Below are positions 2,061 through 30,853 of a DNA stretch of 64,000 nucleotides, one piece after another. The position numbers and the translations under genes were made by a program. The stretch comes from an uncultured Candidatus Binatia bacterium (GTDB lineage: Bacteria; Desulfobacterota; Binatia; UBA9968; JAJDTQ01), in the NCBI GenBank assembly GCA_964291295.2, contig OZ219754.1, positions 800,001-864,000 of the forward strand, written 5' to 3'. Within the stretch, counting starts at the first letter, position 1. Each line of letters starts with the position of its first letter. The notes under the pieces were generated by a model. The model saw only the letters and a program-made list of their open reading frames with translations. It had not been told where the DNA came from and ran no database searches.

Positions 2061-2885
2061 ATGGCGAAACCGGACGGCGACGAGCATCCCATGATGGGAG
2101 AGGGGCGGGAGCGGCTGCGAGGCAGGGCAGCCGTCATCACCGGGGCCAACAGCGGCATCGGACGCGCCACCGCCCGTCTGTTCGCGCGCGAGGGGGCCAA
2201 CGTCCTGTGTTGCGACATCCAGGAGACCACGACGCCGCGGGTGGACGAGCTAATCGTCCAGGAGGGCGGCAAGGCCGCGTTCCTGAACGTGGACGTGACC
2301 TCCGACGGCGGTCCCGAGGAGATGGTGCAGGCCGCCATCGCCCGGTACGGCGGCGTGGACATCCTCTACAACAACGCGGGGGGCGGGATACGCAAGCAGG
2401 TTCATGAATTCACGGACGAGGAATGGAACTTCATCATGGACCTCAATCTGAACGCCATCCAGAGGAGCGTCCGCGCGGTGATCCCCCACATGTTGGCGAA
2501 GGGCAGCGGCAACATCGTCAGCACCGCATCCACCTTCGGGCTGCTGGCCTCGGCCAACTATCCGGCCTACTGCGCCACCAAGGCGGCGGTCATCAGCCTG
2601 ACCCGCCAGATGGCACTGGACTACGGCCCCAAGGGCATTCGCGTGAACTGCATCTGCCCCGGCGCCACCGAGACTCCGCGCTTCCGCGGCCACCCGCCGG
2701 TACCCTCGCTCCCGGCCGCCACCCCCGAGCAGCGCAAGCGCATGGCCGACAGCAACAAGGCCCTGCTGCGGATGGCGCGTCCGGAGGAGATGGCCTACGG
2801 CGTTCTCTTTCTGGCCTCCGACGAAGCCTCCTTCGTCACCGGCCATGCCCTGGTGGTGGACGGCGGCCAGACCATCGCGGTGTGA
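2061..2885 (+). CDS. SDR family oxidoreductase
   Basis: TGANSGIG, NNAG, YCATK (YxxxK), VDGG motifs. Confidence 0.9.
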   Translation: MAKPDGDEHPMMGEGRERLRGRAAVITGANSGIGRATARLFAREGANVLCCDIQETTTPRVDELIVQEGGKAAFLNVDVTSDGGPEEMVQAAIARYGGVDILYNNAGGGIRKQVHEFTDEEWNFIMDLNLNAIQRSVRAVIPHMLAKGSGNIVSTASTFGLLASANYPAYCATKAAVISLTRQMALDYGPKGIRVNCICPGATETPRFRGHPPVPSLPAATPEQRKRMADSNKALLRMARPEEMAYGVLFLASDEASFVTGHALVVDGGQTIAV

Positions 2886-2938
2886 GGCCGGCGCCGGCGG
2901 CCTGCCGGAGGTTCCCGAAACGAAGCCGGGGGACGGAC

Positions 2939-4018
2939 ATGGGAGAGATACTCGGCCTGGGCATCACGCACTACCCCGGACTCGGGTTCCAGGGGAACAT
3001 GACCAGGCGCATCAGGATGTGCCTGGAAGACCCCTGCCTGCCGGAACGGCTGCGCCACGTGGACGAATGGCCGGCGCCCATGCGCGAACAGTGGGGCACG
3101 GATGACGGCCTGAGCCATTCGGAAGCGCACCGGCAGGATCTGATCGACCGCTTCCGTATCGCCCGGCGCACGCTGGACGAGTTCCGGCCCGACCTCTGCC
3201 TGATCTGGGGCGACGACCAGTACGAGAACTACAAGGAAGACTGCGTGCCGGCCTTTTCCATCCTCGCCTACGAGTCGGTGGAGGCGCAACCGTGGCGGCA
3301 CAGCCGCCGGGGCGCCAACGTCTGGGACGAGGCGGAACACAAGACCTTCACCGTCAAGGGCCACCAGGAGGGCGGCAAGTATCTGGCGTCGAGCCTGCTG
3401 GATCACGGCTTCGACGCGGCCTACTCCTACAAGCCGCTCCACCGGGGACTGGGCCACGCTTTCGTGAACTCCGTCCTCTACCTCGACTGGGACCGCCAGG
3501 GCTTTCCGTATCCGGTGGTGCCGTTCACCGTGAACGCCTACGGCCGCAAGCTCGTGGGCAGCCAGGGCATCCCGCTGACCCCTTCGGCCGCCCGCGCCAT
3601 CAAGGACCGGCTCGACCCGCCCGGTCCCCAGCCCTGGCGCTGCTTCGACATCGGCGCCGCCACCGCCCGCGCCTTCGCGGAGAGTCCGTGGCGCGTTGCC
3701 CTCATCGCCTCCTCAAGCTGGTCCCACTCGTTCCTCACCGCCAAGCACTCCTTCATGTACCCGGACGTGGAATCCGACAAGCGCTACTTCGAGGCGCTGC
3801 GGGACGGCGACTGGGAGACCTGGCGGAAGACCAGCCTGACCGAGGCTGAAGACCGCGGGCACCACGAACTGCTCAACTGGTTCGCCCTGGCCGGGGCCAT
3901 GGCCGAGATCGGCCGCAAGCCCGACGACATCGTCTTCCTGGAATCGTGGATATCCAATTCCGACAAGGTGTTCGCGATCTTCCGCCCGCCGGAGAAGACC
4001 GTCCACCCGCCAGCCTGA
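2939..4018 (+). CDS. LigB-like extradiol ring-cleavage dioxygenase
   Basis: MGEILGLGITHYP, WGDDQYE, LGHAF, IASSSWSH motifs of the LigB/class III dioxygenase fold. Confidence 0.75.
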   Translation: MGEILGLGITHYPGLGFQGNMTRRIRMCLEDPCLPERLRHVDEWPAPMREQWGTDDGLSHSEAHRQDLIDRFRIARRTLDEFRPDLCLIWGDDQYENYKEDCVPAFSILAYESVEAQPWRHSRRGANVWDEAEHKTFTVKGHQEGGKYLASSLLDHGFDAAYSYKPLHRGLGHAFVNSVLYLDWDRQGFPYPVVPFTVNAYGRKLVGSQGIPLTPSAARAIKDRLDPPGPQPWRCFDIGAATARAFAESPWRVALIASSSWSHSFLTAKHSFMYPDVESDKRYFEALRDGDWETWRKTSLTEAEDRGHHELLNWFALAGAMAEIGRKPDDIVFLESWISNSDKVFAIFRPPEKTVHPPA

Positions 4019-4056
4019 CCGGCCGGCGCCACCACGCCGGGACGGCCTGCCGGCAG

Positions 4057-4137
4057 CGTTACCGGACAGGGATCGTTACCGGCTTGGGTCGTGACCGGAC
4101 GAGGTCGTGACCGGACGGGGTCGTGACCGGACCGAGG
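4057..4137. repeat. Tandem repeat, 5 x ~16 bp (CGT[T/G]ACCGGACnnGGT)
   Basis: Units start at 4057, 4074, 4090, 4106 and 4122. Confidence 0.8.
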
Positions 4138-4247
4138 CGCGGAGACCGGGGGCATCCCCTCCATGGCCAGACCCCGCCCTCCCGCCGGAATCCTGCCTGC
4201 TTCGAGCCACGGGCACACGTCTCCGACACGCCACCCCCAAGGTACGT

Positions 4248-4321
4248 ATCCTGTCCCCGGGATTCCTGTCCTTGGTAATCCTTTCCCGGACATCCTGTCC
4301 TTGGTAATCCTGCCCCCGGGA
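4248..4321. repeat. Tandem repeat, 5 x ~15 bp alternating ATCCTGTCCCCGGGA / ATCCTGTCCTTGGTA-like units
   Basis: Units start at 4248, 4263, 4278, 4292 and 4307. Confidence 0.75.
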
Positions 4322-4323
4322 CC

Positions 4324-5217
4324 TTATCCCTGCGACTGAAAGAGAAAGTAGACGCCGGCCACCACCAGCAGCGCGGCCAGACCATCCTTGAGAGTGACGG
4401 CCTCGTCCCCCTGCAGAAGCAGCCGCGCCAGCGAGAAGGTCACCAGCGGTTGCAGATTCCAGACCGGCGCCACGATGATCGCCGGGGCATGGGCCACCGC
4501 CAGGTAGGTGAAGATCGACCCCACCCCCTGGAAGAATCCGGACAGGAGCAGGACAAGGCAGCTGCCCCCGGTGAGCCGGATGCCTTCCCGCCAGTCGATG
4601 CGCAGGAACCGGCCGAAGGACATGACAAGGGCGAGCCCGGTGACGTGGGTGATCAGCGCCCCGGGGATGGGCGTTCCTCCGGCCAGGATCGCGATCTTCT
4701 TGAGTATCGGGCCGAAGCCGAAGCACACGATGGCCAGCAAGGGGTTGAGGAACGCCCGCAGGCTCGGGAGCCCCCGCAGGTCGCCCGCTTCGGGAGTGCG
4801 GCGGGTGATGATCAGAAGCCCGGCGACGATCAGCACCACGCCGACGAGGATCACCGGAGACGCCGTCTCCCCCAGCAGGACGATGGCATAGACGGCGGTG
4901 AGCAGCGGTGCCGAGTTGACGATGGACTGGGCCCGGGAGGCCCCCACCTCGTCGATGCCCTTGAGCGTGAAGGTGCGCCCCAGAAAGCTGCCCACCAAGC
5001 CGACGGCAACGAACACCGCCGCCGCGCTCCAGGGCATCACGGCTCGCACCCCGCCGAACGGGAGCCCCATGATCAGCGCCAGGGTCAAGACCGACCCCAC
5101 CTGCTGCTGCAACACCGCCGCGCTGACGTTGGAGTGCCTGAGGCCGCGCTTGACCAGCACCGGCGACGTCCCCCAGCACAGCGCCGCCGCCAACGCCCAG
5201 GCGATGCCGGTTTCCAT
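4324..5217 (-). CDS. DMT/EamA family transporter
   Basis: About 10 hydrophobic segments in two repeats; N-terminal ALAAALCWG, LLGE motif. Confidence 0.85.
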   Translation of the reverse strand: METGIAWALAAALCWGTSPVLVKRGLRHSNVSAAVLQQQVGSVLTLALIMGLPFGGVRAVMPWSAAAVFVAVGLVGSFLGRTFTLKGIDEVGASRAQSIVNSAPLLTAVYAIVLLGETASPVILVGVVLIVAGLLIITRRTPEAGDLRGLPSLRAFLNPLLAIVCFGFGPILKKIAILAGGTPIPGALITHVTGLALVMSFGRFLRIDWREGIRLTGGSCLVLLLSGFFQGVGSIFTYLAVAHAPAIIVAPVWNLQPLVTFSLARLLLQGDEAVTLKDGLAALLVVAGVYFLFQSQG

Positions 5218-5509
5218 GATTACGGGATAGATAGCACCGGCCGGGGCGGGCCGGAAGCAGCGTCGAGGTCAGGTCTGGACCGAGCGGCGCCAGACGCCGG
5301 CCACATGCTTGAATCGAGCGATGGGGACTTGCTACAAGAACTCCCGTGCACGCTCACAATCGAAATGGACGAAATGCATATAAAGCACGATGGTTCGGCC
5401 GATGACAGTCTGTCCCGCGAACTTGAGGTGAAATGAGCGGCGCACTCAAGGTCCAACCAGCATTGGAGCGGCAGGGCCGCAGGCCTCCGGCCACCCCGAC
5501 GAGGTTCGC

Positions 5510-8500
5510 ATGAGCATCCCTCCTGGCACATTTGTCCGTCTCAAGAGCGACCCCGATCGCGCCGGCGTTCTGGAGCAGGGCGAAAAACGGATAAGTGGCT
5601 CGCGGTTTGCCCCGGTAAGGTTCCCGAACGGGCAGATAGAGTGGTTGCCGCTCTCGGCACTGGAGCCCGTTCCCTCTGCATCCGAAAGCCCTTCCGACCT
5701 CTTTGCCGCAGGGCAGTTCGTTGGACCGAACTGGCTGCGCCGCAAGCTGACCCAACTGCGCGTCACCGGTAGGCTGAGCGATGTGGTCTACAGCATGGAG
5801 GCGACCGAAACAGACTTCTACGCCTACCAGTTCAAGCCGGTCATCAAGATGATGAATTCGCCCACCGATGCCCTGCTGATCGCGGACGAGGTCGGCCTCG
5901 GCAAGACGATCGAGGCCGGCCTCGTCTGGACAGAACTTCGCGCCCGGCTCGACTGCGACCGTTTGCTGGTGATCTGTCCCAAAACCCTGTGCCAGAAGTG
6001 GCAGGACGAACTCGACCGGCGGTTCGGCATCAAGGCGGAGATCGCAGGCCCCCAAGAGCTTCTTCGGGCTCTCAAGCGCAACGGCGAGGGCAAGAGGAAG
6101 GCCTATTCGTTGGTATGCAGCATGGGACTGCGCCCGCCGCGTCATTGGAACCACGACGAGTCGCAGACGGAAGGCGGGTACGGCTCCACTCGACGCGAGT
6201 TGGCGCGGTTCCTCGACGAGGCAAGCGATGGCGAGCCTTTGATCGATCTCCTGGTGGTCGACGAGGCGCACCACATGCGCAACCCCGAGACCTTGCTCAA
6301 CGATTTCGGGAAACTGGCCAACTCCGTCGCAAGCCATCGTCTGTTCCTGTCGGCCACCCCCATCCACCTTCAGAACCGCGACCTTCATTCGATTCTGACC
6401 ATGGTGGATCCGGATACTTTCGAGTTCGAGAATACCCTGCACGAACTGATCGAAACCAACGCGCCCATCATCGCCGCCCGGGATCGACTGCTGCAGGGGG
6501 CTTCGCCAGCCGAGGTGCTGGAGATGTTGGCCGAAGCGCAGGGGCACGAAATCCTGAGGGAGAGCAAAGCCTTGGCCCAGCTTCGTGAGGAACTCGCCAG
6601 GACGAACGGCGTGGACTTCGATCGCACGAAGCGGTCGGAGTTGGCCGCCCGCCTGGAACAAGTCAACCAACTCGCGAACTACGTCACTCGGACACGCGCG
6701 CGTGATGTGCAGACGGCCAAGGTCATCCGCGAACCCAAGGACCCCGTGCTGGAGATGAGCGACGCCGAGCGCTTCTTTTACGATGAGATATCCGCGGTGG
6801 TGCGGGACTATGCCTTGGACCGGGATGTGAACGCGCCCTTTCTGCTGGCTACACCGCAACGACTGCTGTCATCAAGCCCGGCCGCAGCCTCCGCCTACTG
6901 GGCCGGCATGCCAGGCGACGACGAAAACGAAGAACTCGACTACGACATGTCGGACCATTCGGATGAAGAACGCCCCCTGACCGCGCAGATCGCCGAAAAG
7001 ACACGCTCTCTTGACATGACGGGGCAACTCACCGAAGCGGACACCAAATACCGGCTACTGATCGCCGAACTGCGACAACACTGGCGCGCCGAGGCCGCCG
7101 CCAAGATCATCGTTTTCTCCAGCTTCAAGTCGACCTTGCACTACCTGCGGGATCGACTTCGCATGGATGGCATCAAGACCGAGCTCCTGCACGGCAGCGT
7201 GAAGGGGCCACGCGCGGAAATCCTCGCGCGGTTCAGGGAGAAACACGATATCCGCGTATTGCTCTCCTCCGAGGTCGGAAGCGAGGGTGTGGATCTGCAA
7301 TTCAGCTCCATCGTGGTGAACTACGACCTGCCATGGAATCCCATGCGCCTTGAGCAGCGTATCGGCCGAGTCGACAGATTGGGCCAGCAAAAGGACAAGG
7401 TGACCATCCTCAACCTGATCTACGGCGACACCATCGACAAGCGAATATACGAGCGCCTGTTCAAACGCCTCCAGACCGCACGGATCGCCTTGGGCGAACT
7501 GGAATCGGTTCTCGGTGAGCCGATTCGCCAGATGACGGCAAAGCTGCTGGATCCCAGGCTGACCGTTGAACAGAAGGATCAGGCCATTGCTCAGACAGCC
7601 CAGGCACTGGAGAACCAGGAACAGGAACAGAGTCGCCTGGAGTCCGAGGCTGGATCGCTCGTCCAGCACGGTGACTACATCATCGAACGCATCGCGGAGA
7701 GCCGGGATCGGCAACGTTGGCTCAGTGCCGAGGATATATTGATATACATGCGTGATAGCATATTGACAAATTTTCCGGGCAGTGTCATCGAGTCAAGCCC
7801 GACCGGTTCGGACACCTATCGGATCCAGCTCTCATCCAAAGGCACTCTTGAATTCAATCGATTTCTTCAGGATCGCCGTCTCAGAGGTACGACTCGAATC
7901 TCGAGCGGCGACATGCGACAGCGGTTCCGGTTCACGCCGTCGGTGGTGCAGAAGGACAGGAGTGTAGAGAGCATCTCGCATTTGCACCCGCTGGTACGGT
8001 TCGCCACCGAACTGGACCGCCGGGACGATACCGTCCGGGATGCAAGGGCCGTGGCGGCAAAGATTCAACTTAAGGACGTTGACGGGCTGAAGGACGAGTG
8101 TGCATCCGGGCTGTATGTGCTTGCTGCGCACCGCTGGATCATCGGCAGTGCCGGCCACAGGACGGCGAACGTTCGCATCGGATACACCGGTGCCTGCATC
8201 CTTACCGGCACCCTGATTGAAGCCGACCTCGCCGAGAGGATGATGGCGGCCGCAGCCGCGCATGGCTACCCTGTACCGAACGCGGGCAGTCACAGCGGTT
8301 TGGCCAAGGCAAGCACGACACTGAAGACCGTGGTTGAACCGGAACTCGACCGGCGCTTCGAGGAATTCATCCGTCAAACGCAGGACGCGACCGAGGACCG
8401 TTTCGCCATTCGATCCCAGGCTTTGACGCGACACTTCGAAAAGAAAATCGATAGTTTGGAGCAAACGAGAAGCGAGCTTAACGATGACGCGTCACGGGCG

Positions 8501-8680
8501 AAGAACGAGGGGAAAGCCCAAAGGGCGGCCCAATTAAGCAACCTGGCGATCGCTCGGGAGACCAGGATCGAGAAGTTGAAGATGACTTGGCGATCGAAGG
8601 AAGAAGAGATGAGCAACGCGCGTAAGACCGTGCCAGATAGATCGGACGTTGGCTGCCTCCTGCTTCAGGTGGAGGAATAG
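5510..8680 (+). CDS. SNF2/RapA-like superfamily 2 helicase/translocase, 1056 aa, with C-terminal coiled-coil
   Basis: YAYQ (Q motif), ADEVGLGKT (I), DEAH (II), SAT (III), SEGVDLQ (V), EQRIGRVDR (VI). Confidence 0.92.
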   Translation: MSIPPGTFVRLKSDPDRAGVLEQGEKRISGSRFAPVRFPNGQIEWLPLSALEPVPSASESPSDLFAAGQFVGPNWLRRKLTQLRVTGRLSDVVYSMEATETDFYAYQFKPVIKMMNSPTDALLIADEVGLGKTIEAGLVWTELRARLDCDRLLVICPKTLCQKWQDELDRRFGIKAEIAGPQELLRALKRNGEGKRKAYSLVCSMGLRPPRHWNHDESQTEGGYGSTRRELARFLDEASDGEPLIDLLVVDEAHHMRNPETLLNDFGKLANSVASHRLFLSATPIHLQNRDLHSILTMVDPDTFEFENTLHELIETNAPIIAARDRLLQGASPAEVLEMLAEAQGHEILRESKALAQLREELARTNGVDFDRTKRSELAARLEQVNQLANYVTRTRARDVQTAKVIREPKDPVLEMSDAERFFYDEISAVVRDYALDRDVNAPFLLATPQRLLSSSPAAASAYWAGMPGDDENEELDYDMSDHSDEERPLTAQIAEKTRSLDMTGQLTEADTKYRLLIAELRQHWRAEAAAKIIVFSSFKSTLHYLRDRLRMDGIKTELLHGSVKGPRAEILARFREKHDIRVLLSSEVGSEGVDLQFSSIVVNYDLPWNPMRLEQRIGRVDRLGQQKDKVTILNLIYGDTIDKRIYERLFKRLQTARIALGELESVLGEPIRQMTAKLLDPRLTVEQKDQAIAQTAQALENQEQEQSRLESEAGSLVQHGDYIIERIAESRDRQRWLSAEDILIYMRDSILTNFPGSVIESSPTGSDTYRIQLSSKGTLEFNRFLQDRRLRGTTRISSGDMRQRFRFTPSVVQKDRSVESISHLHPLVRFATELDRRDDTVRDARAVAAKIQLKDVDGLKDECASGLYVLAAHRWIIGSAGHRTANVRIGYTGACILTGTLIEADLAERMMAAAAAHGYPVPNAGSHSGLAKASTTLKTVVEPELDRRFEEFIRQTQDATEDRFAIRSQALTRHFEKKIDSLEQTRSELNDDASRAKNEGKAQRAAQLSNLAIARETRIEKLKMTWRSKEEEMSNARKTVPDRSDVGCLLLQVEE

Positions 8681-8685
8681 ACTCA

Positions 8686-10068
8686 ATGGGGTTCGAGTAC
8701 TGGGACTTTCCTGCCGAAGCGGCCGTGCGCGAACCCCCGCCTGCCTCCATTGCGGACAACGACCGGCTGCGGCTTGAGAAAATGCTTCATGAGGGCGAGG
8801 GGCCGCCAACCGGCAGCGACGATCTGTTCCTCTGGCTCGGCCTCGATTTCGGCACCAGCTCCACCAAAATGATTGTTCGGCTTCCCTTTGAAGCGGGGGA
8901 ACCGACCATCGCCATCCCCGCCCCTTCTTTCTGCCGCGGGGAAGGCAATCCCTATCTCTGGAAGACCGTGCTCTGGCTGCGAAATGACGGTGGCTTTCGT
9001 CCCTATCCGGAAGCTGGAACAAAAGTCCTGAATACGCTGAAACAGGGAATCATCCGCCGCCCTGGCGACACGACCCTTGCCGAGACCATCGTCGCATCAA
9101 GCCGAGCCCAGGCAGTCGTCGCCTACCTCGCCCTTGCCATCCGGTACGCCCGAGGCTGGTTGTTGCTCAATCGAAAGAGCCTCTTTCGAAGGGGCCTCTT
9201 TCGGAGACGCAAGCCTGTCTGGTTCGTGAACATCGGCATGCCAGCGGCAAGCTACAACGAGCCTGATCTTGCAGTTCGCTACCGGCACATCGGGGCTGCC
9301 GCACTGCAACTGGCGAACTCCAGGCAGGCCATCACCACCGACACGACGCAGAGCTTTCTCGGAGACCACAAAGTAGCAGAGGCGGGGGAATCGGAGCAGG
9401 TTGCGGCAGATCTCGGCGTCGCCGTAGTACCCGAAACGGCGGCCGAAATGATGGGCTTCACCAAGTCGACCCGCAGCGCCCCCGGCCTCTACCTTACGTT
9501 GGACGTCGGGGCGATGACCCTCGACGCCTGCATGTTCCGGCTCACGCACCGGTTGGATCAGGAGGGGGTGGGGATGGACCACTACCTCTTCATGGCGACG
9601 CAAGTCCGGCCGCTCGGGGTGGAATCATTCCATTGGTTCCTGAGCGAGGGCAAGACCGAACCCGACTTCATTCACCAATGCGAACGTATGCTCTGGTATG
9701 TCGTATGGCACACCAAGCAGGACCGCGATCCTCACGCCGACGAATGGAAGCCCGGAAACAGCCTGCCCGTTTTCCTGACAGGTGGCGGAGCAGAGAATCG
9801 TCTGCATCTGGACATCGTAAAATCTCTCGACCCCTGGCTGAGGCAGTTTCTTCCTGAGAGCGGCGTCCGGCTCATCGACCCGCCAGTGCCAATGCCGCAA
9901 ACGCTTGATCTGCCGGAGCCAATTCAGCATCCCCGCAGAATAAACACTGCTTGGGGCCTGAGCTATCCGGAAATCGGCCGTATCCACCCAACCCACTCCA
10001 TCACCGACATCAAGCCTCCGACCCGGAGAGACTATGGCGATGCCTTTGTCTCCAAGGACCAGATCTGA
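8686..10068 (+). CDS. Uncharacterised actin/Hsp70-fold (ASKHA) ATPase, 460 aa
   Basis: Phosphate-1 LGLDFGTSSTK, connect-1 VVPETAA, phosphate-2 LDVGAMTLD, adenosine FLTGGGA, connect-2 TAWGL. Starts 5 nt after the helicase stop, with its GGAGG RBS inside the helicase 3' end. Confidence 0.8.
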   Translation: MGFEYWDFPAEAAVREPPPASIADNDRLRLEKMLHEGEGPPTGSDDLFLWLGLDFGTSSTKMIVRLPFEAGEPTIAIPAPSFCRGEGNPYLWKTVLWLRNDGGFRPYPEAGTKVLNTLKQGIIRRPGDTTLAETIVASSRAQAVVAYLALAIRYARGWLLLNRKSLFRRGLFRRRKPVWFVNIGMPAASYNEPDLAVRYRHIGAAALQLANSRQAITTDTTQSFLGDHKVAEAGESEQVAADLGVAVVPETAAEMMGFTKSTRSAPGLYLTLDVGAMTLDACMFRLTHRLDQEGVGMDHYLFMATQVRPLGVESFHWFLSEGKTEPDFIHQCERMLWYVVWHTKQDRDPHADEWKPGNSLPVFLTGGGAENRLHLDIVKSLDPWLRQFLPESGVRLIDPPVPMPQTLDLPEPIQHPRRINTAWGLSYPEIGRIHPTHSITDIKPPTRRDYGDAFVSKDQI

Positions 10069-10345
10069 CTACGGCCAACCGCCGGACCGGCGCCCCGCTT
10101 GCAACAACTCTTAACATCCTTGGCCCGACACCCATCGATCCTGTACTCAAGGCCCTCCGCCGCCGACGCCAGCGAGTCATCCCACGGACTTCGCCGACCC
10201 ATGTCCTTCAATGACCTCGACCCGACAGGCGCGGTTCCGCTTTCGTTCGGTCTGCGTTCTCCAGCTTGCAACTCGCCGGCAACGTGGCATGGTGGGGAGA
10301 TGGAGGAGTCGTGACGCGCACGGTGTCACGGGAAAGGAGACCCGC

Positions 10346-10990
<645 letters not shown>

Positions 10991-10997
10991 CGCGGCG

Positions 10998-11525
10998 CTA
11001 CTCCGCCAGGAGCCGCTGGATGATCTCTTCCATCTCGTCGTAGCCGCCCTCGCCGAAACGGGTGTACCGGACCACGCCCTTTCTGTCGATGATGTGCAGC
11101 GTGGGCCAGTAGCGCGTGCGGTAGCGCTTCCAGGTCGCGAAATCGTTGTCCTGCGCCACGGGAAACCTGATTCCCAACTCCCGGCAGGCATTCCGGACGT
11201 TTTCCAGCGCGTGTTCCCAGGCAAACTCCGGCGAGTGGATACCCACCACGACGAGGCCCTCGGAACCATATCTTTCGTGCCACTCCGTCAACGACGGCAT
11301 GGTGTTGAGACAGTTGATTCAGCCGTAGGTCCAGAACTCGACGAGAACCACCTTCCCCTTGAGATCCTTCAGCCTGAGCGGCTCCGAGTTGATCCAGGTG
11401 TCGTTGGCGAACTCCGGCGCCGGCCGGCCCACCAGCGAAGCCGCGGCGCTGCCGGACGCCGCCAGGATCATGAAGCCCAGAAGAACCGCGAGCCCCGGCG
11501 CACGCCATCTTGATGAACGCTGCAT
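10998..11525 (-). CDS. Exported TlpA/DipZ-like redoxin with UxxC active site (probable selenoprotein; in-frame TGA at 11319-11321)
   Basis: Two in-frame ORFs join as ...LKGKVVLVEFWTYG-TGA-INCLNTMPSL...GIHSPEF...YWPT...GEGGY. The TGA sits at the first Cys position of CxxC. Hydrophobic signal-like N-terminus. Confidence 0.85.
11278..11299 (-). promoter_or_regulatory. Candidate bacterial SECIS hairpin
   Basis: On the minus strand CCGTC-GTT-GACGG (11285-11297); the apical G follows the UGA after a 26-nt spacer. Confidence 0.5.
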
Positions 11526-11629: not shown

Positions 11630-12137
11630 TCAGAAGGCGCCTTTCCTGACACGGTTGGCGACGACCCATTCTTGCACAATGCGAGGCATCTCCTCGACCA
11701 CTTCGCGCCCGAACAGAACCTCATCGACGTAGCCCATGTGAAGCATGTCGAATATCCGACAGAGATAAGCCTTGCCGCAGTTCCACCAGGTAAACCAGGA
11801 ATCGACCATCAAATAGTGCCTGATGTTGATGGACTCGCGTCCCCGAAGCTCTTCAAGTTCCATCCCGTCAAGCAGTGTCTCGTACACCCCGTCGGCGACA
11901 CGGCTCCCGAACGTCGTTGTGTAGTAGTATTCCTTGATCTCCCGGATGGCGATTGGGTTGATTGCGGAAGGGAACGCACCGTCCACCCTCCTTCAGCTTG
12001 TCGAAGGCAGACACCATCTGCTTCGCCGTGGGCACGATGATCGTCTCACCCCCACTATAGCCAACGGTCTGGCTGAGAGACCGCACGCATGCCCAGAAGG
12101 ACTTCGGCTTCCTGAGGAATTTCTCATTCGGTTTCAT
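11630..12137 (-). pseudogene. Putative type II restriction endonuclease, internally deleted and frameshifted
   Basis: N-terminus MKPNEKF...FWACVRSLSQTVGY joins out of frame at ~11992 to RRVDGAFPSAINPIAIREIKEYYYTTTFGSRVADG (D...ExK nuclease-like motif). Overlaps the HTH gene stop and is divergent from an N6A MTase. Confidence 0.7.
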
Positions 12138-12381
12138 TGGGGCGGTCCAGTTGCGCCTCCAACTTGCGGACAAAGTCGGTCAGAGAAACGCCAAGGGCGG
12201 CGCAGACTTCGCGCAGTTCAAGCACGTCGAGACGACGCTCGCCCAATTCGTATTTGCTGATCATCGACTGTGGGACGCCCATCCGCTCAGCAATATCGAC
12301 CTGCCGTACCCCCGCCCGTGTACGGGTCTCCTTGAGCAAGGTCACGAAGACCCGATGCTCCCGAGTGCCAATCTTCGCCAC
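12124..12381 (-). CDS. XRE-family HTH regulator (probable R-M controller, C protein)
   Basis: LLKETRTRAGVRQVDIAERMGVPQSMISKYELGERRLDVLEL; directly upstream of and overlapping the nuclease gene. Confidence 0.85.
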   Translation of the reverse strand: MAKIGTREHRVFVTLLKETRTRAGVRQVDIAERMGVPQSMISKYELGERRLDVLELREVCAALGVSLTDFVRKLEAQLDRPNETE

Positions 12382-12482
12382 GGTGCCCCTATGATTCCCT
12401 TGCGGTATAGTCACCGTGCCCTTATACATGCCCTTGCGGAATATCCCATCTTCCTGTATTTTATGATCATCGGGAGGGCACG

Positions 12483-13385
12483 ATGCAGGCAGTCTTGAAT
12501 TTCGACGAGGTGGTTCTGGCGGTTGACGAGAACACAACCTCGGGCGTCGTTCCGTTCAAATCGCAGCTCCTGAAATGGATCGGGAACAAACAGCGCTTCG
12601 CGCATGAGATCATTTCATTTTTCTCCAGCCGTTTCCGGATGTATCATGAGCCGTTTCTCGGCTCTGGAGCCGTACTCGGGGTACTGGCGCCCCGTAGGGC
12701 CGTAGCAGCGGATAGCTTCAAGCCGCTCATCGACATCTGGAAGACATTGCGGAGCGATCCCGAAATGGTCAAGGATTGGTATCGAAGCCGCTGGCTGGAA
12801 GCCCAAGAGGGCGACAAGGTCTCTCAGTATGAGAAGATAAAAGCGCGATACAACGAGAGAGCCAACGCGGCGGATTTCTTGTTCCTGACACGCGCAGCCT
12901 ACGGTGGGGTGGTCCGTTTCCGCAAGGCGGACGGCTACATGTCGACACCTTGCGGGATACATGAACCGATCCACCACGGTTCGTTCAGCCGTCGGGTGGA
13001 CGAGTGGTGGAAACGGGTTCGTGGGACCGAATTTCATCATCGGGAATATGAAGAGTCGCTAAAGTGCGCGAAAGATGGAGACATCGTGTACTGCGACCCC
13101 CCATACAGTCACAGCCAGGCAATCCTGTACGGAGCCCAAGGGTTCTCTCCCGACGACATGTTCCGCCAGATTGATGCGGCAAAACGGCGGGGAGTGTTTG
13201 TCGCCCTAAGCCTCGATGCGTCGAAAAAGTCCGGAGGCACGAGCTGCGATTACGATATTCCACCTGGCCTCTTTGCGCGCGAGGCGGCCGTGAACTGCGG
13301 GCGATCCATGCTCAAGCGTTTTCAGATGGTTGGAAAAACACTGGAGCATGAAGTCGTAACCGATCGTTTGCTGCTTACACACTAA
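12483..13385 (+). CDS. Dam-family (D12 class) N6-adenine DNA methyltransferase
   Basis: LKWIGNK, EPFLGSGAV (motif I), YCDPPY (motif IV). Exact start uncertain. Confidence 0.92.
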   Translation: MQAVLNFDEVVLAVDENTTSGVVPFKSQLLKWIGNKQRFAHEIISFFSSRFRMYHEPFLGSGAVLGVLAPRRAVAADSFKPLIDIWKTLRSDPEMVKDWYRSRWLEAQEGDKVSQYEKIKARYNERANAADFLFLTRAAYGGVVRFRKADGYMSTPCGIHEPIHHGSFSRRVDEWWKRVRGTEFHHREYEESLKCAKDGDIVYCDPPYSHSQAILYGAQGFSPDDMFRQIDAAKRRGVFVALSLDASKKSGGTSCDYDIPPGLFAREAAVNCGRSMLKRFQMVGKTLEHEVVTDRLLLTH

Positions 13386-13554
13386 GGATAGTCTGAGCAA
13401 GTCCTGTAGGGTACATGGGGCAGCATGAGGGAAGGAGGGGAAAGAATGAAGCAGGCGACGTTGGGGAGGTGGAGCATGATGCGAAGAAGCGAGTGACGCG
13501 GCGGGAAGTATTTCTTGCGAAGATGGAGAATTGGACCTTTTGTTCAGACCTTCC
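13386..13554 (+). mobile_element. IS5-derived non-autonomous mini-element (169 bp)
   Basis: Imperfect terminal IRs GGATAGTCTGAGCAA / TTGTTCAGACCTTCC. Internal frameshifted IS5-type transposase start MKQATLG/EVEHDAKKRVTRREVFLAKME. Preceded by CTAA. Confidence 0.8.
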
Positions 13555-13588
13555 TCAGGACTCGTCCGTGCAGCGTCAGGACTCATTC

Positions 13589-14479
13589 ATGCTCTATGAC
13601 TATGTCGCCTTTCCCGACCGACCGCCGCTGCACTGGCCCCACGGTGCCCGGGTGGCGCTGATCTTCACCATCAACATCGAATACTGGGAGATGACCCGGG
13701 ACAACGACGCGCCCCTCTACCCCGGCGGCCCGGCCACCATCCCCCACGTGCTGCCGGGCAACGTCCCCGACTACGCCAACTGGACTTGGCGCGAGTATGG
13801 CCAGCGCGTGGGCGTGTGGCGCATCATCGACGTGTTCGACCGGGCCGGGGTGCCCGCCACCTGCACCATGAACGCCCTCACCGGCATCGAGCGGCGCCGC
13901 ATCATCGACGCCGTCAACGAGCGCGGCTGGGAGATCCTGGCCCACAACTACGCCCAGAACGATGTGCTCACCGACTACGCGAACCAGCCGGACCGGGAGC
14001 GCCAGGTAATCCGCCGGACCCTGGACGCCTACGCCGAGGCGGTGGGCCGTCCCGCCCGGGGCTGGCTGTCCTCGTCGCTGCGGAGCACCCACGAGACGCC
14101 CCACATCCTGAAGGAGCTGGGGCTGCTGTTCCAGGCGGACTACCTGAACGACGACCAACCCTATCGGCTCAACACCCGCCACGGCCCGCTGGTGTGCATT
14201 CCGTACTCCAACGACGTCAACGACTTCGCGGTATTCTCCCGCGGCGGCAGGACCACGTCCCAGGCCCTGGAGCTGTTCCGGGAACAGTTCGATCAGCTCT
14301 ACCTGGAGGGCGCCGCCAGCGGGCGCATCATGAACGTCGGCATGCACCCCCACGTCATGGGCCAGGCCTACGCCATCCGCGCCCTGCGGGAGTTCGTGGA
14401 CTACGTGAAGACCTTTGACCGAGTGTGGTATCCCCAGCGCCAGGAAATGGCCGAGTGGTTCCTGGAGAACCATCCGTAG
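13589..14479 (+). CDS. Polysaccharide deacetylase family (PuuE/allantoinase-like) amidohydrolase
   Basis: RPPLHWPHGARVAL, EYGQRVGVWR, GWEILAH, DDQPY, MHPHVMGQ. The ORF-track N-terminal extension is IS sequence. Confidence 0.85.
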   Translation: MLYDYVAFPDRPPLHWPHGARVALIFTINIEYWEMTRDNDAPLYPGGPATIPHVLPGNVPDYANWTWREYGQRVGVWRIIDVFDRAGVPATCTMNALTGIERRRIIDAVNERGWEILAHNYAQNDVLTDYANQPDRERQVIRRTLDAYAEAVGRPARGWLSSSLRSTHETPHILKELGLLFQADYLNDDQPYRLNTRHGPLVCIPYSNDVNDFAVFSRGGRTTSQALELFREQFDQLYLEGAASGRIMNVGMHPHVMGQAYAIRALREFVDYVKTFDRVWYPQRQEMAEWFLENHP

Positions 14480-14488
14480 GGAGGTCTC

Positions 14489-15538
14489 GTGAAACCGTAT
14501 CGAGTCGCCTTGATTCAGCAGCAGACCCGGGTCATCGTCGAGCCGGGGGAGCGTGACGCCATCATCGACGAAAACCTCGGGCGCATCTTCGAGTTGCTGG
14601 ACTGGACCGCGCTGCGCCTCGGGGACGTGAAGCTCGCCGTGTTCTCGGAGTACGGCATCATCGGACAGTACCGGCCGCGGTCGGTGGACGAATGGCTGGC
14701 GCTGGCGGAGACCATCCCCGGCGACGTCACCGAGCGGATCGGCCGCAAGGCCCGGGAACGGGGCTGCTACATCGCGGGCAATCTCTACGAACGGGACGAC
14801 GACTGGCCCGGACGGCTCTTCAACACCAGCTTCATCGTCGATCCGGACGGCGTCGTCGTCCTCAAGTACCGGAAGAACAACGGTCCCAACAACCTCAACA
14901 CCACCTACACCGGCCCCGGCGACGTCTATTCCGAATATACCGAACGCTACGGCGAGGACTCCATGTTTCCAGTGGCCGAAACCGAAATCGGCCGGCTGGG
15001 GTGCCTGACCTGCACCGACGTGGTGTTCCCGGAAATGGCCCGCTGCCTGGCGCTGCGCGGCGCCGAGGTGCTGATCCACCCCACGGCCGAGCCCTACGCC
15101 CCGGAAGGCGAGGCCTGGGATGTGCTCCGGCGCGCCCGCGCCTACGAGAATCTGTGCTACTTCCTCTCGGTCAACTGCGGCGCCTTCGTGGGCTCCAACC
15201 GTCCCACCGGCGGCTACCGCGGCATGACCCAGGTCATCGACTACATGGGACACGTCCAGTCCGCGGCCACCGCTCCCGGCGAGGCGGTGGTCACCGGCAT
15301 GGTGGATATCGACAACCTCCGTTGGGAACGCACGCGCATGGCCGACTCGGGCCACGTGTGGAACTTCCTGGTGGAGTTGCGGAGCGACCTCTACGCCCCG
15401 GTGTACGCCAAGGCGAAGCGCTGGCCCAACGACGGCTGGCGCCACCGCAAGCTGCAGGACACCGCGGAGACCCGCGCCGAGGCCCGCAGGATCATTGATC
15501 GGCTGGTGCGGGAGGGACACCTGGTCAAGCCGGAATGA
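14489..15538 (+). CDS. Nitrilase/carbon-nitrogen hydrolase family protein
   Basis: FSE (Glu), YRK (Lys), CLTCTD (Cys) catalytic triad motifs; ARAYEN. Confidence 0.85.
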   Translation: MKPYRVALIQQQTRVIVEPGERDAIIDENLGRIFELLDWTALRLGDVKLAVFSEYGIIGQYRPRSVDEWLALAETIPGDVTERIGRKARERGCYIAGNLYERDDDWPGRLFNTSFIVDPDGVVVLKYRKNNGPNNLNTTYTGPGDVYSEYTERYGEDSMFPVAETEIGRLGCLTCTDVVFPEMARCLALRGAEVLIHPTAEPYAPEGEAWDVLRRARAYENLCYFLSVNCGAFVGSNRPTGGYRGMTQVIDYMGHVQSAATAPGEAVVTGMVDIDNLRWERTRMADSGHVWNFLVELRSDLYAPVYAKAKRWPNDGWRHRKLQDTAETRAEARRIIDRLVREGHLVKPE

Positions 15539-17016
15539 GGAGCCCGCCGCCGGTGTCATCGCGCGAAACCGATGTGGCCGTGGTGGGCTACGGCGGCGCC
15601 GGCGCCACCGCCGCCATCACCGCGGCGGACCTCGGGGCCAAGGTGCTGGTGGTGGAGAAGGAGTCCTCGGGCGGGGGCAACACGAAGCTCTCCGCAGGCT
15701 CCGTGCGGACCTTCGGCGACTTCCACCGGGCGGTGGCACACATCGCCTTCCTGTGCGGCGGAACCACCGATACGGCCGTGATCGAGGCGCTGGTGCGCGA
15801 GAGCCACCAGAACGAGCCGTGGCTCCGCGCTCTCGGCGGGGCGGTGGTCGTCGATCCGATCCAATCCGTCCCCACCCGTTATCCGATCTATCCGACGGGC
15901 GCCGCCTCGCCGGAGCAGCCCGGCGCGGACGGCGTCGGGCCGCGGCTCCGGGTCAAGGGTGCCACCACGGCCAACGGACGCGACCTGTGGGAGCTGCTGG
16001 CCGGCAATGTGGCCGCGCGGAGCATCCCGGTGCTGTTGGACTGCCCGGCAATCCGGCTGCTGCGCGACGGAGACGGCACGATCAACGGCCTGACCGCGAG
16101 GCGGGGCAGGGAAGAGATCGTCATCCGGGCGCGCAAGGCGGTGATCCTCGCCTGCGGCGGCTATGAACGGGACCCGGACATGCAGCTTCAGTTCCTGGGG
16201 CAGCGCTACGAGTCCCTGGGCGCCTCCAGTCACACCGGCGACGGCATCCGTCTGGCCGCCGACGCGGGCGCATCCCTGTGGCACATGAACGCGGTCGCCG
16301 CGGGCTTCGGCTATCGCGTGGAGGGATTCGACTGCGCCGTCCTCCACGCCATGCCGGCACCGGGGTTCATCTACGTGGACCGGCGCGCGCACCGTTTCGT
16401 GAACGAGACGGCCATGGACGCCCACGCGGTGGGGTCCATGGTGACGGAGCTGGATCTGGAGACCATGGAGCAGCCCCGGGTGCCGTGCTTCGTGGTGTTC
16501 GACGAAAAGACCCGCACGGCCGGTCCCGTGGCCGACACCGGCCGCGGCGCGGTGGCCGGGCGCTACCGGTGGAGCGGCGACAATGCCGCCGAGGTGGCCG
16601 CGGGCTGGATCAGGACGGGGGACACGGCCGCGGCCCTGGGCGCGGCGCTCGGCCTGAACCCGGCGTTGCTGGAGCGCACCGTCGGCGAATACAACCGTGC
16701 CTGCACCGAGGGCCGGGACGAAAGGTTCGGGCGCTCCCCCGGCACGCTGAGGGCGCTGGACCGTCCCCCGTTCTACGGCGCGGCGCTGTGGCCGAGCCTG
16801 TTCAACACCCAGGGCGGCCCGCGGCGAAACGCCCGCGCCCAGGTGCTGGACGCCTGGAGCCGTCCCATCCGGGGACTGTACGGCGCCGGCGAACTGGGCT
16901 CCATGTGGTCCCGGAACTACCCCGGTGCCGGCAATCTCACCGAGGTGCTGGCCTTCGGCCGCATCGCCGGTCGCAACGCCGCGGGCGAGACGCGCCGCGA
17001 CCCGCGGTCCGGGTGA
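15535..17016 (+). CDS. FAD-binding oxidoreductase (fumarate reductase/3-ketosteroid dehydrogenase-like)
   Basis: VVGYGGAG, GGNT, ILACGG, TGDG, TQGG, GLYGAGE, FGRIAG. Confidence 0.88.
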   Translation: MRSPPPVSSRETDVAVVGYGGAGATAAITAADLGAKVLVVEKESSGGGNTKLSAGSVRTFGDFHRAVAHIAFLCGGTTDTAVIEALVRESHQNEPWLRALGGAVVVDPIQSVPTRYPIYPTGAASPEQPGADGVGPRLRVKGATTANGRDLWELLAGNVAARSIPVLLDCPAIRLLRDGDGTINGLTARRGREEIVIRARKAVILACGGYERDPDMQLQFLGQRYESLGASSHTGDGIRLAADAGASLWHMNAVAAGFGYRVEGFDCAVLHAMPAPGFIYVDRRAHRFVNETAMDAHAVGSMVTELDLETMEQPRVPCFVVFDEKTRTAGPVADTGRGAVAGRYRWSGDNAAEVAAGWIRTGDTAAALGAALGLNPALLERTVGEYNRACTEGRDERFGRSPGTLRALDRPPFYGAALWPSLFNTQGGPRRNARAQVLDAWSRPIRGLYGAGELGSMWSRNYPGAGNLTEVLAFGRIAGRNAAGETRRDPRSG

Positions 17017-17061
17017 ACGCCGCGCGAAGCGACGCAGGGAAACAGGGAGGAGGCGACCCCT

Positions 17062-18621
17062 TTGGAACCCATCGAGTTCGTGGACACGACATTGCGGGAT
17101 GGACACCAGAGCCTGTGGGCCGAGTCCATGCGCACGGGCATGATGCTGGCGGTGGGCGAGCGCATGGACCGGGCCGGCTTCAAGGGCATGGAGCTGATGT
17201 CGAGCTCCCACATCAAGAAATGCGTGCGGGAACTGCACGAAGACCCTTGGGAGCGCATACGGCTGGTGGCCGGACGCATCCGGGAAACGCCGTTGCGGGT
17301 CATCATCGGGGGCCGCAACGGCTTCGAGCTGACGCCGGAGTCCATCCAGCGGATCTTCCTGGAACGGATGGCGGCCAACGGCGTGCGCCAGGGGCGCATC
17401 TCCGACGAGTGGAACGATCCCGCGGGGTGGCGCCGGACCTTGCGCCTGGCCACGGCGGCGGGGCTTGAGCCGATCCTGAACATCATCTACTCGGTGTCGC
17501 CCAGGCACACCGATGTCTACTTCGCGGAGCGGGCCCGGCAGGCGGCCGCACTTCCGGTGGCGCGGCTGTGCCTCAAGGACCCCGGCGGCCTGCTGACGCC
17601 GGACCGCACCCGCGTGCTGGTGCCTCTCATCAAGGAGAACAGCGGCGGCCTGCCGCTGGAGTTCCACACCCATTGCACCACCGGTCTGGGACCGCTGTGC
17701 GCCCTGGAAGCCATCCGGCAGGGCATCCGCATCATCAACACCGCGCTGCCGCCGCTGGCCAACGGCTCGTCCAACCCGTCGCTGTTCAACGTCGCCGCCA
17801 ACGCCCGCAGCCTGGGCTTCGAGACCGCGGTGGACGAAGAGATGCTGCGGCCGGTGTCCGCGTACTTCACCGCGGTGGCGCGGCGGGAGGGGTTCCCCAT
17901 CGGCGCGCCGGTGGAATACGATTGCAACCAGTACCGGCATCAGGTACCGGGCGGCATGATCTCGAATCTGCGCCACCAGCTCGCCCGGGTGGGCCTCGGC
18001 GACCACATGGAGCGGGCGCTGGAGGAGGTGGTGCGGGTGCGCGAGGAGCTGGGCTACCCCATCATGGTGACGCCGCTGTCGCAGTTCGTGGGCAGCCAGG
18101 CGGCCATCAACATCATCGTCGGGGAGCGCTACGGGCAGGTCACCGACCAGGTGATCCTCTACGCGCTGGGGCGCTGGGGCCGGGAAGGCAGCGAAGGCAT
18201 GGACGCCGGCGTCAAGGACCGTATCCTGGCCTGCCCGCGGGCCCGGGAGCTGGCCGCGTGGGAACCGCCGGAGCCCACCCTCCGGGAACTGCGCGCCAAG
18301 TACGGCGGTGCCGGTGTCCCGGACGAGGAACTGCTGCTGCGCTATTTCCTGACCCGCGAGGAGATCGACACCATGCGCGCGGCCGGCCCGCCCCGGGACT
18401 ACCCCTTCGACAGGAATCGCGTGACGCGGCGGCTGGCGGGTTTCACGCGGCGGCGGGACTACGACGACATTCGCGTGCGCCGCGGGGGATTCGCCCTGCA
18501 TCTTTCACGGAACGCATCCTCCCGCGGAGGTGGGCGGCGTCCCGCAATTGACCCCAACGCTCCCCTCGACCATTCGGCGGCTACGATACCGGAGGAGGCA
18601 TCCGGAAGTGGCGGTGGATGA
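17062..18621 (+). CDS. Pyruvate carboxylase B / oxaloacetate decarboxylase alpha-like carboxyltransferase, without biotin domain
   Basis: DTTLRDGHQSL, CLKD, FHTHCTTG, HQVPGGMISN, GYPIMVTPLSQ; no AMKM biotinyl motif. Confidence 0.85.
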   Translation: MEPIEFVDTTLRDGHQSLWAESMRTGMMLAVGERMDRAGFKGMELMSSSHIKKCVRELHEDPWERIRLVAGRIRETPLRVIIGGRNGFELTPESIQRIFLERMAANGVRQGRISDEWNDPAGWRRTLRLATAAGLEPILNIIYSVSPRHTDVYFAERARQAAALPVARLCLKDPGGLLTPDRTRVLVPLIKENSGGLPLEFHTHCTTGLGPLCALEAIRQGIRIINTALPPLANGSSNPSLFNVAANARSLGFETAVDEEMLRPVSAYFTAVARREGFPIGAPVEYDCNQYRHQVPGGMISNLRHQLARVGLGDHMERALEEVVRVREELGYPIMVTPLSQFVGSQAAINIIVGERYGQVTDQVILYALGRWGREGSEGMDAGVKDRILACPRARELAAWEPPEPTLRELRAKYGGAGVPDEELLLRYFLTREEIDTMRAAGPPRDYPFDRNRVTRRLAGFTRRRDYDDIRVRRGGFALHLSRNASSRGGGRRPAIDPNAPLDHSAATIPEEASGSGGG

Positions 18622-30838: not shown

Positions 30839-30853
30839 GCCGCTCCCTCGCCC

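Follow-up and report, generated by a model that had tools for sequence, protein, structure and literature searches.

The window analysed here is a stretch of 64,000 nucleotides (nt) from an uncultured Candidatus Binatia bacterium (assembly GCA_964291295.2, contig OZ219754.1, positions 800,001 to 864,000 of the forward strand), and near its start two adjacent genes encode a SNF2-family ATPase of the RapA/DrmD/BrxHII type (P0001; 5510-8680, plus strand, 1056 amino acids) and a 460-residue ATPase of the ASKHA fold that resembles the Hsp70 nucleotide-binding domain (NBD) and belongs to an uncurated family (P0002; 8686-10068, plus strand). A previous sequence-only reading of this DNA had proposed the pair as a candidate undescribed module directed against phages or other mobile elements. 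Both open reading frames (ORFs) lie exactly at the positions it gave; the assignment of P0001 is based on the ORF, on Pfam, PADLOC and NCBIfam matches and on a profile compared with solved structures, and that of P0002 on the ORF, an AlphaFold model and its fold matches. The tight junction also reads as described, with 5 nt between the stop codon TAG (8678-8680) and the start codon ATG (8686), and with the GGAGGA ribosome-binding site of P0002 (8671-8676, plus strand) placed within the 3' end of the P0001 gene. The flanks are, as stated there, an EamA/DMT transporter gene (4324-5217, minus strand) and the gene for MsrA (10211-10990), and the pair is indeed less GC-rich than its surroundings (G+C 0.575-0.62 compared with 0.655-0.68 upstream and 0.66 just downstream). 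A promoter scan of positions 5100-10400 gave no sigma-70-like site, and a terminator scan of the same interval gave a single minus-strand site resembling a terminator, within the helicase gene, where shuffled sequences gave more.

The SNF2 helicase

P0001 matches the Pfam families SNF2-rel_dom (E value 1.3e-18) and Helicase_C (3.5e-21), and its ATPase core comprises residues about 100-680 (5807-7549, plus strand). Of the superfamily 2 motifs that had been read from the translation, DEVGLGKT (motif I), DEAH (II), SATP (III) and QRIGRxDRxGQ (VI) are invariant across 37 aligned homologues (columns A125-L138, D251-H254, A282-P284 and Q616-Q626). Among models of defence helicases, the PADLOC DrmD model PDLC02623, which has no curated cut-off, aligns over the full length of the protein (773 bits, residues 1-1026). 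The NCBIfam scores lie below the respective cut-offs for DISARM_DrmD (NF038317, 406.2 bits, cut-off 610; NF038318, 141.7 bits, cut-off 950), for RapA (NF003426, 142.7 bits, equivalog cut-off 576) and for ZorD (36 bits, cut-off 1500), and the match to the HmaA model is partial (161 bits). When a profile of 37 homologues was compared with proteins of solved structure, Escherichia coli RapA was the best relative (E value 1e-53, 186 bits) while eukaryotic SNF2 proteins scored at most 109 bits.

The regions on either side of the core may be RapA-like as well. The N-terminal region (residues 1-95; 5510-5794, plus strand) is covered by PDLC02623 from position 1, no Pfam family matched residues 1-107, and by analogy with RapA and BrxHII, for which such an element is described in PMC12839542, the N-terminus is possibly a Tudor/SH3-like barrel. 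For the C-terminal region (residues 690-1056; 7577-8677, plus strand), which likewise has no Pfam match, the AlphaFold model (m033dca000950; predicted local distance difference test, pLDDT, 86.8) combines an alpha/beta part with two very long helices that run antiparallel, after which a final strand rejoins the sheet. The sequence-only reading had spoken of a coiled-coil tail: the long helical stretch is there, but it is modelled as an antiparallel hairpin (residues about 931-1038; 8300-8623, plus strand; helices 242-310 and 314-349 of the C-terminal model). With Foldseek, the only significant matches of this model were four RapA chains (E values 2.9e-5 to 3.9e-4), with low TM-scores of 0.23-0.25, and a VIA-align comparison with representatives of the PDB returned generic helical hairpins alone (Z ≤11.5), the alpha/beta part being barely probed. 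In agreement with the earlier statement that the helicase carries no nuclease motif, none was found by Pfam or among the C-terminal fold matches, in which the alpha/beta part was not searched separately.

The ASKHA-fold partner

P0002 has no match in Pfam (E value ≤0.1), NCBIfam or PADLOC, 24 further members of its family gave no Pfam match at an E value ≤0.05, and its profile matched no PDB sequence at an E value ≤1; Pfam matches to MreB, FtsA and Alp7A, all below threshold, appear only in distant relatives. The predicted structure is nevertheless clear, and the AlphaFold model (pLDDT 85.1, predicted template modelling score 0.88) places P0002 among the ASKHA nucleotide-binding folds. The best fold matches are Sse1/Hsp110 (Z 23.4, 296 residues aligned, root-mean-square deviation 3.4), the Hsp110 NBD (Z 21.2) and Ssb1 (Z 20.4), followed by BeeR/MreB (Z 19.3-19.6) and PilM (Z 17.8), by FtsA, ParM and the archaeal actin homologue Ta0583 (Z about 17) and by Arp4 (Z 16), with the Arp4, Arp8 and actin chains of INO80/PBAF structures at Z 14-16; Foldseek matched the DnaK NBD with an E value of 3e-9. 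By sequence, then, P0002 belongs neither to Hsp70 (PF00012), of which it has the NBD fold, nor to the filament-forming bacterial actins (MreB, ParM, FtsA, Alp), to which it is related by fold only (Z 16-19). The absence of the DnaK substrate-binding domain, noted previously, is borne out, since the NBD-like fold spans residues 45-433 of the 460 and the last 13 residues are disordered.

All five motifs of the actin-fold ATPases had been claimed for P0002, and four of them were followed through 38 family members, whose overall identity goes down to about 25%. Phosphate-1 (GLDFGTSSTK, residues 52-61; 8839-8868, plus strand) is present in 38 of 38 aligned members, connect-1 (PE) is kept in the 38, and in phosphate-2 (DVGAMTLD, residues 273-280; 9502-9525, plus strand) all 38 have the D-x-G-x-x-T pattern and all except L045, which has E, also share the final D. 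The adenosine-binding GGG (residues 366-368; 9781-9789, plus strand) is kept in 35 of the 38 and is GGA in L026, L027 and L047. Because phosphate-1 is one of the two patterns used to retrieve the family (see below), its conservation is partly by construction, and only the other motifs are independent evidence.

The family is large. A word-indexed search gave 248 homologues of P0002, and the eight of these that were listed with a source name are all called 'hypothetical protein'; among 1.84 billion representatives of clusters at 50% identity, there are 733, 1660 and 2401 clusters at E values of 1e-30, 1e-10 and 1e-3 or better, respectively. In many homologues the N-terminus is extended by about 100 additional residues, basic and helical in character, that are missing from the window copy and its closest relative; short-form partners are also found in other genomes, e.g. 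at L013, L011 and L029.

Conservation of the gene pair

To obtain genome loci, one genome per species was scanned with two short peptide patterns of the small protein, which gave 47 loci. The two genes are consistently adjacent, as the proposal of the sequence-only reading requires: in 43 of the 47 loci, a tblastn search with P0001 detected a SNF2 homologue that is encoded on the same strand and directly upstream. The contig end cuts three of the remaining four (L010, L024 and L031), and in the fourth (L016) a transposase precedes a truncated partner gene. The helicase is present yet separated or broken in L012, L018, L020 and L027; in the last of these (Terasakiella, 2640-9338) it is split by an inserted 471-residue ORF, probably an insertion sequence element, of which a second copy lies just upstream. 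In 30 of the 35 intact pairs, the window included, the called gap between the genes ranges from -38 to +69 nt.

An all-against-all clustering of 525 ORFs from these loci gave only two families that occur in more than five loci, i.e. the partner (48 loci including the window) and the helicase (44 loci), which favours the 'stand-alone' over the 'truncated' module of the earlier reading. The loci are spread over Alpha-, Beta- and Gammaproteobacteria, a deltaproteobacterium, Acidobacteriota, Binatia, Gemmatimonadetes, Spirochaetes, Bacteroidota and Actinomycetota, and gene order, strand and tight spacing are conserved over at least eight phyla. Pairwise identities of the two proteins are correlated (r 0.95, a value that none of 999 permutations reached), as expected of any genes that travel together. 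No SNF2-ASKHA fusion was detected among proteins of 806-2300 residues, a search that gives weak evidence, and a complex prediction for helicase residues 690-1056 with the partner, run without controls, scored 0.00 against a mark of 0.32 and is evidence neither for nor against binding.

Within the phylum the pair is rare. In a profile search of 301 genomes sampled from it, only the present one gave a strong match, and the possibility that this is a housekeeping gene was rejected on that frequency. In another Candidatus Binatia genome (L013, 3638-11823, compared with 4324-11300 of the window) the pair occupies the equivalent slot between the EamA and MsrA genes, with an additional minus-strand ORF of 377 residues between the partner gene and the MsrA gene. 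Here the two pairs are 64-67% identical and the flanking genes 81-88%; the greater divergence of the pair fits either fast evolution or replacement at a hotspot.

A reverse test and a sister clade with a different partner

Starting instead from the helicase, a metagenome scan seeded on SNF2 motifs was carried out and 66 loci were kept. All five clade-type metagenomic SNF2 genes with at least 2.4 kb of downstream room (L081, L082, L085, L086 and L087) are immediately followed by a gene for an ASKHA partner; the helicases are 31-44% identical to P0001, and the PDLC02623 scores are 829 bits for L086 and 702 bits for L087. The closely related SNF2 genes L083, L084 and L088-L090 end at a contig edge and are outside this count. 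In four of the five strong metagenomic cases, a match of P0001 that extends into the C-terminal region went together with the ASKHA partner, the tblastn match of L086 having reached residue 790. As the C-terminal match mostly goes with the partner, the C-terminal domain is a candidate docking site, which we offer only as a lead.

More distant helicases (L096, L097, L100, L111 and L138; 368-421 bits on PDLC02623) are followed by a weaker ASKHA-like protein (hmmsearch E values 1e-15 to 2e-18). None of these five partners matches a PADLOC model, and four have sub-threshold Pfam matches to MreB, FtsA or Alp7A. In 12 of the 66 loci, the SNF2 gene is followed instead by a gene for a Tiamat-like protein (TmtA models, E values 1e-42 to 1e-66), and the four such proteins that were scanned with Pfam have Sacsin and HATPase_c_3 domains. 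A sister pair of this kind is present in the genome under study, at 1.71 Mb on contig 1 (C1:1707567-1715171, minus strand; L077, 5567-13171), where the gene for a 1218-residue SNF2 protein (388 bits on PDLC02623) that has a Swt1-like HEPN domain at its N-terminus precedes the gene for a 1030-residue Sacsin/HATPase_c_3 (GHKL) protein. A HEC-01A-like ATPase gene lies near this sister pair on the other strand. These data hint that the partner slot may be swappable, with an ASKHA protein in one clade and a Tiamat-like GHKL protein in its sister.

Genomic context across loci

Flanking genes within 8 kb were scanned using one representative per family of at least 230 residues, and the counts are therefore lower bounds. 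The pair is mostly found in defence or mobile-element contexts rather than among housekeeping genes, in line with what the sequence-only reading would have it, with defence-type genes in about 27 of the 47 loci (a raw count with no background rate near random genes to set it against). Restriction-modification (R-M) genes are the commonest neighbours and are of type III (L019, L021, L022 and L042), type I (L023, L045 and L048), and type IIG or other methyltransferase kinds (L040, L046, L011 and L043). GmrSD, HEC-05 or HEC-06 genes are found at L017, L019, L023 and L036, Zorya I and II at L029 and L030, a ZorD-like gene at L012, Lamassu LmuB at L008, a DndH-like gene at L007, PDC-S68 at L015 and Mokosh-like genes at L030, L035 and L048. 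Further neighbours are DpdF-like (L033), McrB-like and UvrD (L039) and DruE-like (L040), and HmaC lies directly upstream of the pair at L026.

Genes related to DISARM adjoin the pair in a few loci. In L032 the pair is directly followed by DrmC and a second DrmD, and in the Burkholderiales loci L034, L038 and L044 it is preceded by DrmB-like and NERD-helicase genes; when L038 and L044 were extended, the order was DrmMII-like, UvrD-like, DrmA, DrmB, NERD-helicase, a small ORF and then the pair. The second DrmD of L032 is of the canonical type (PDLC02621, 964 bits), and the partner ORF of that locus (3415-6339) is called at 975 residues, with about 530 extra N-terminal residues that match neither Pfam nor PADLOC and may represent either a true extension or a gene of their own.

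As to mobile elements, four plasmid records carry a relative and three of these are conjugative plasmids. On the Aminobacter plasmid pAA03, where its genes are annotated as 'helicase-related protein' and 'hypothetical protein', the pair has a RecB-like nuclease/ATPase/restriction cluster on one side and Hachiman, restriction enzyme and AbiEii genes on the other. A TrwC relaxase flanks the pair at L004 and a terminase at L017. Searches of 50,697 phage records and of viral contigs gave no match.

These observations bear on whether the pair has a role in immunity at all. It might instead serve a mobile element or the cell in some other DNA or RNA transaction, for example by recycling stalled RNA polymerase in the manner of RapA, aided by a chaperone-like protein, or by establishing or maintaining a conjugative element. 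RapA is after all the closest solved relative by sequence and the sole significant fold match of the C-terminal region, no nuclease was found, and the three conjugative plasmids, the relaxase and the terminase would all suit such a role. Against it, the NCBIfam RapA score of 143 bits is far from the cut-off of 576, the distribution is sporadic, the pair diverges faster than its flanks, phage and viral records lack it and defence neighbours recur; we rate a non-immune role as improbable.

Neighbouring genes in the window

The sequence-only reading had also pointed to an R-M locus 1.5 kb from the pair, and an R-M remnant does begin 1.56 kb downstream. It forms a small R-M-like islet of low G+C content (11630-13385; 0.556-0.59) with a DUF7687 ORF (11630-11986, minus strand), a DUF7690 ORF (11868-12173, minus strand; family match), an HTH_3 gene (12124-12537, minus strand; family match) and, divergent from these, a D12 N6-adenine methyltransferase gene (12483-13385, plus strand) that matches type II methyltransferase models and not DrmMI. 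From its match, confined to positions 81-187 of the profile, the DUF7687 ORF looks like a gene that is frameshifted or truncated. Of the earlier statement that both ORFs of the pair are intact while several neighbouring accessory genes are decayed, the first part stands and the second is partly borne out, this truncated ORF being the sole case seen.

Further downstream, two long minus-strand ORFs (13583-15559, 658 residues, and 15556-18501, 981 residues) had no family matches, and they overlap plus-strand ORFs that do have matches (polysaccharide deacetylase, CN hydrolase, FAD-binding oxidoreductase and carboxylase-domain ORFs). The G+C content is 65-72% across this region (13415-18621) and 0.69-0.72 over 15-18.5 kb, and the two ORFs are probably spurious. 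A type III R-M pair that appears intact is encoded at 28787-33904 (minus strand), with a Mod protein of 683 residues (PADLOC MTase_III, 746 bits) and a Res protein of 1016 residues (ResIII and RE_endonuc).

That R-M genes stand near the pair, here and elsewhere, raises the question whether the pair is a non-autonomous, add-on motor of modification-dependent systems (DISARM-like, ARMADA/BREX-like or classical R-M) that needs their methyltransferase and nuclease; alone in the window, it would then be orphaned or be served by systems encoded elsewhere. The full-length match of the helicase to the PADLOC DrmD model speaks for this, as do the DrmB-like and NERD-helicase genes in three of the 47 loci (two of them with DrmMII-like, UvrD-like and DrmA genes as well), the DrmC and second DrmD of L032, the frequency of R-M neighbours and, in the present genome, the R-M remnant, the type III R-M pair and an ARMADA-like locus at 2.29 Mb. 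Yet methyltransferases, DrmA, DrmB and DrmC are all absent from the gene families that the loci have in common, most loci have no such genes within 8 kb and several have housekeeping flanks only, and the neighbouring systems are of many unrelated kinds, a better fit to co-location in islands than to a fixed partnership. We consider the add-on role unlikely, while granting it appreciable weight. The narrower proposal of a truncated DISARM was rejected, no DISARM gene being conserved with the pair across loci.

It could also be argued that the window copy is the functionless remnant of a formerly larger system, as its partner has no N-terminal extension of roughly 100 residues like that of many homologues and the adjacent R-M locus looks degraded. 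However, both ORFs are intact and of full length relative to the family profiles, the catalytic motifs are all kept and short-form partners occur elsewhere (L013, L011 and L029), and this explanation appears very improbable.

Proposed function and its implications

Conserved and inherited together, the two genes form a module that is frequent in defence islands and also occurs on conjugative plasmids. With moderate confidence, and judging from sequence, we read it as a single horizontally mobile and self-contained module whose most likely role is that of an anti-phage or anti-plasmid system; the defence function is here inferred from genomic context only. The earlier proposal of a candidate undescribed defence module is therefore upheld with respect to adjacency, context and the absence of a full match to any named system, and needs qualifying with respect to its kinship with DISARM.

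Several points weigh against this interpretation. Retrieval by two short peptide patterns biases the sample of loci, the enrichment of defence genes near the pair is unquantified, and the correlation between the identities of the two proteins is no proof of physical interaction. Moreover, neither Pfam nor Foldseek revealed a nuclease or another effector domain in the two proteins, housekeeping genes alone were seen in the flanks of at least four loci (L003, L005, L014 and L020), and the immediate neighbours of the pair in the window are a transporter and MsrA.

If the module does act in immunity, the following scheme would be compatible with the data. Both ATPases are apparently competent, to judge from their motifs. 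The SNF2 protein, presumably built like RapA, BrxHII and DrmD, would be an ATP-driven translocase on double-stranded DNA, and the Hsp70-NBD-like partner, through an ATP cycle of its own, might act as a nucleotide-gated switch or adaptor through which the motor is licensed or directed to its target; a role as a filament, as considered in the sequence-only reading, seems less likely. Since no nuclease is recognised in either protein, the output would most likely be that replication or transcription complexes on the invading DNA are stripped off or stalled at the expense of ATP, or else that this DNA is handed over to nucleases encoded elsewhere, and the latter fits those copies that are embedded in DISARM-like or R-M loci.

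DISARM, BREX type 3, ARMADA, Hma and Zorya all have SNF2 motors among their core components, whose role in these systems is poorly understood. If the interpretation holds, a minimal system of two genes in which neither a nuclease nor a methyltransferase is recognisable would be a simple setting in which to study what a RapA-type translocase does in immunity. The Tiamat-like GHKL ATPase in the sister slot hints, in addition, at a design principle in which a motor is combined with an exchangeable ATPase sensor. Irrespective of function, the P0002 family deserves a name, considering its 733 clusters and that no Pfam, NCBIfam or PADLOC model covers the members tested, and naming it would improve the annotation of genomes and plasmids.

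Comparison with known systems

The pair matches no named system in full in PADLOC or NCBIfam, and in the literature searched (subscription journals and bioRxiv supplements not covered) there was no description of a SNF2-ASKHA pair. The sequence-only reading had set it apart from DISARM on the ground that DrmA, DrmB and DrmC are missing. This is correct for the window, where none of the three is among the ORFs scanned (111-33904; DrmC was not searched genome-wide), and in the genome as a whole MZB/DUF1998 domains are confined to loci at 2.29 and 2.58 Mb, neither of them linked to the pair, with no strong match to a DrmA model near the pair. The helicase itself is not unrelated to DISARM: like the DrmD of class 1 systems it is a SNF2-family helicase of about 1000 residues, it aligns in full with PDLC02623 (773 bits), and the Burkholderiales loci have Drm genes next to the pair. 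It falls short of the curated DrmD cut-off, however (406 compared with 610 bits), and whereas the gene order given for class 1 is drmD-drmMI-drmA-drmB-drmC (bioRxiv 10.1101/2021.12.28.474362), no DrmMI gene adjoins the pair in the window, where EamA and MsrA genes do so instead and the nearest methyltransferase is the type II D12 enzyme at 12483-13385. Finally, DISARM as described has no ASKHA ATPase, which is the constant partner of P0001.

RapA is closest to P0001 among solved proteins (E value 1e-53), yet the NCBIfam RapA score of 143 bits stays below the cut-off of 576. The beta-sheet domain modelled for P0001, into which two long helices are inserted ahead of the final strand, agrees with what is reported of the C-terminal domain in RapA and BrxHII (PMC12839542). 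The RapA-like defence helicases BrxHII (BREX type 3) and ArmA (ARMADA) are reported to travel with PglX-like methyltransferases; this companion has no counterpart in the SNF2-ASKHA pair. An ARMADA-like locus is present in the genome under study without being linked to the pair (C1:2285151-2297164; L078, 3152-15165, minus strand). It encodes a YprA/DruE-like helicase of 1770 residues with an MZB domain, a DpdE/BrxHII-like SNF2 protein of 984 residues (682 bits on the DpdE model) and a DrmMI/PglX-like methyltransferase that extends over two ORFs (727 and 753 residues) and is possibly frameshifted.

Hma (HmaA-HmaB-HmaC) is a SNF2-based defence system whose HmaA, according to PMC11232893, has an essential C-terminal PD-(D/E)xK nuclease. 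P0001 matches HmaA partially (161 bits), no nuclease was recognised in it, and neither a methylase nor a DUF499 gene is adjacent to the pair in the window. From Zorya type I the pair is distant, as had been noted from the absence of ZorA and ZorB: the ZorD model gives 36 bits against 1500, no MotA/ExbB-type gene is found among the window ORFs scanned, and Zorya genes occur only as neighbours (L029 and L030).

For the partner, a comparison can be made with CnuD of the type III CoCoNuT McrBC systems, which is described as an Hsp70-like protein with a retained substrate-binding domain and degenerate ATPase motifs, encoded as the partner of McrB-type GTPases (PMC11090510). The likeness is that of an Hsp70-like ATPase domain as companion of a nucleoside-triphosphate-driven translocase in a predicted restriction system. 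By description, the comparison not being one of sequences, P0002 differs in that it has no substrate-binding domain, keeps its motifs and is paired with a SNF2 protein; no McrB or McrC family was found among the window neighbours, and none is conserved across loci.

A different comparison is offered by the eukaryotic INO80, SWR1 and BAF/PBAF remodellers, in which a SNF2 motor carries an actin/Arp module on its HSA helix, P0002 likewise having the actin fold. On this analogy the pair might be a bacterial counterpart, by convergence, of the SNF2 and actin-fold modules of these remodellers: the ASKHA protein would dock on the clade-specific C-terminal domain and its long hairpin and gate a nuclease-free immunity, in which the replication or transcription machinery of the invading DNA is evicted or stalled instead of the DNA being cut, an Hsp90-like GHKL protein would take its place in the sister slot, and RapA-type SNF2 proteins would be a general chassis for chaperone-type ATPase sensors. 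We regard this wider proposal as speculative and distinctly improbable; Hsp70/Hsp110 proteins fit P0002 better than the actin and Arp chains do (Z 20-23 compared with 14-16), and there is no evidence that the two pairings share a common descent.

A parallel in organisation is the pair of Tiamat-like and Swi/Snf proteins. Tiamat-like proteins are reported to be often encoded beside helicases, Swi/Snf proteins included, an association that the report ties to defence (bioRxiv 10.64898/2026.09.30.754977). In the members scanned, the helicase belongs to the sister SNF2 clade (368-421 bits on PDLC02623) and a second, non-helicase ATPase is encoded in the equivalent position and orientation, but that ATPase is of the GHKL type (Sacsin/HATPase_c_3), whereas P0002 has the ASKHA fold and no TmtA match. 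The SNF2-ASKHA pair can be seen as a new variation on a defence helicase of a known kind, and as a candidate module it is apparently undescribed.

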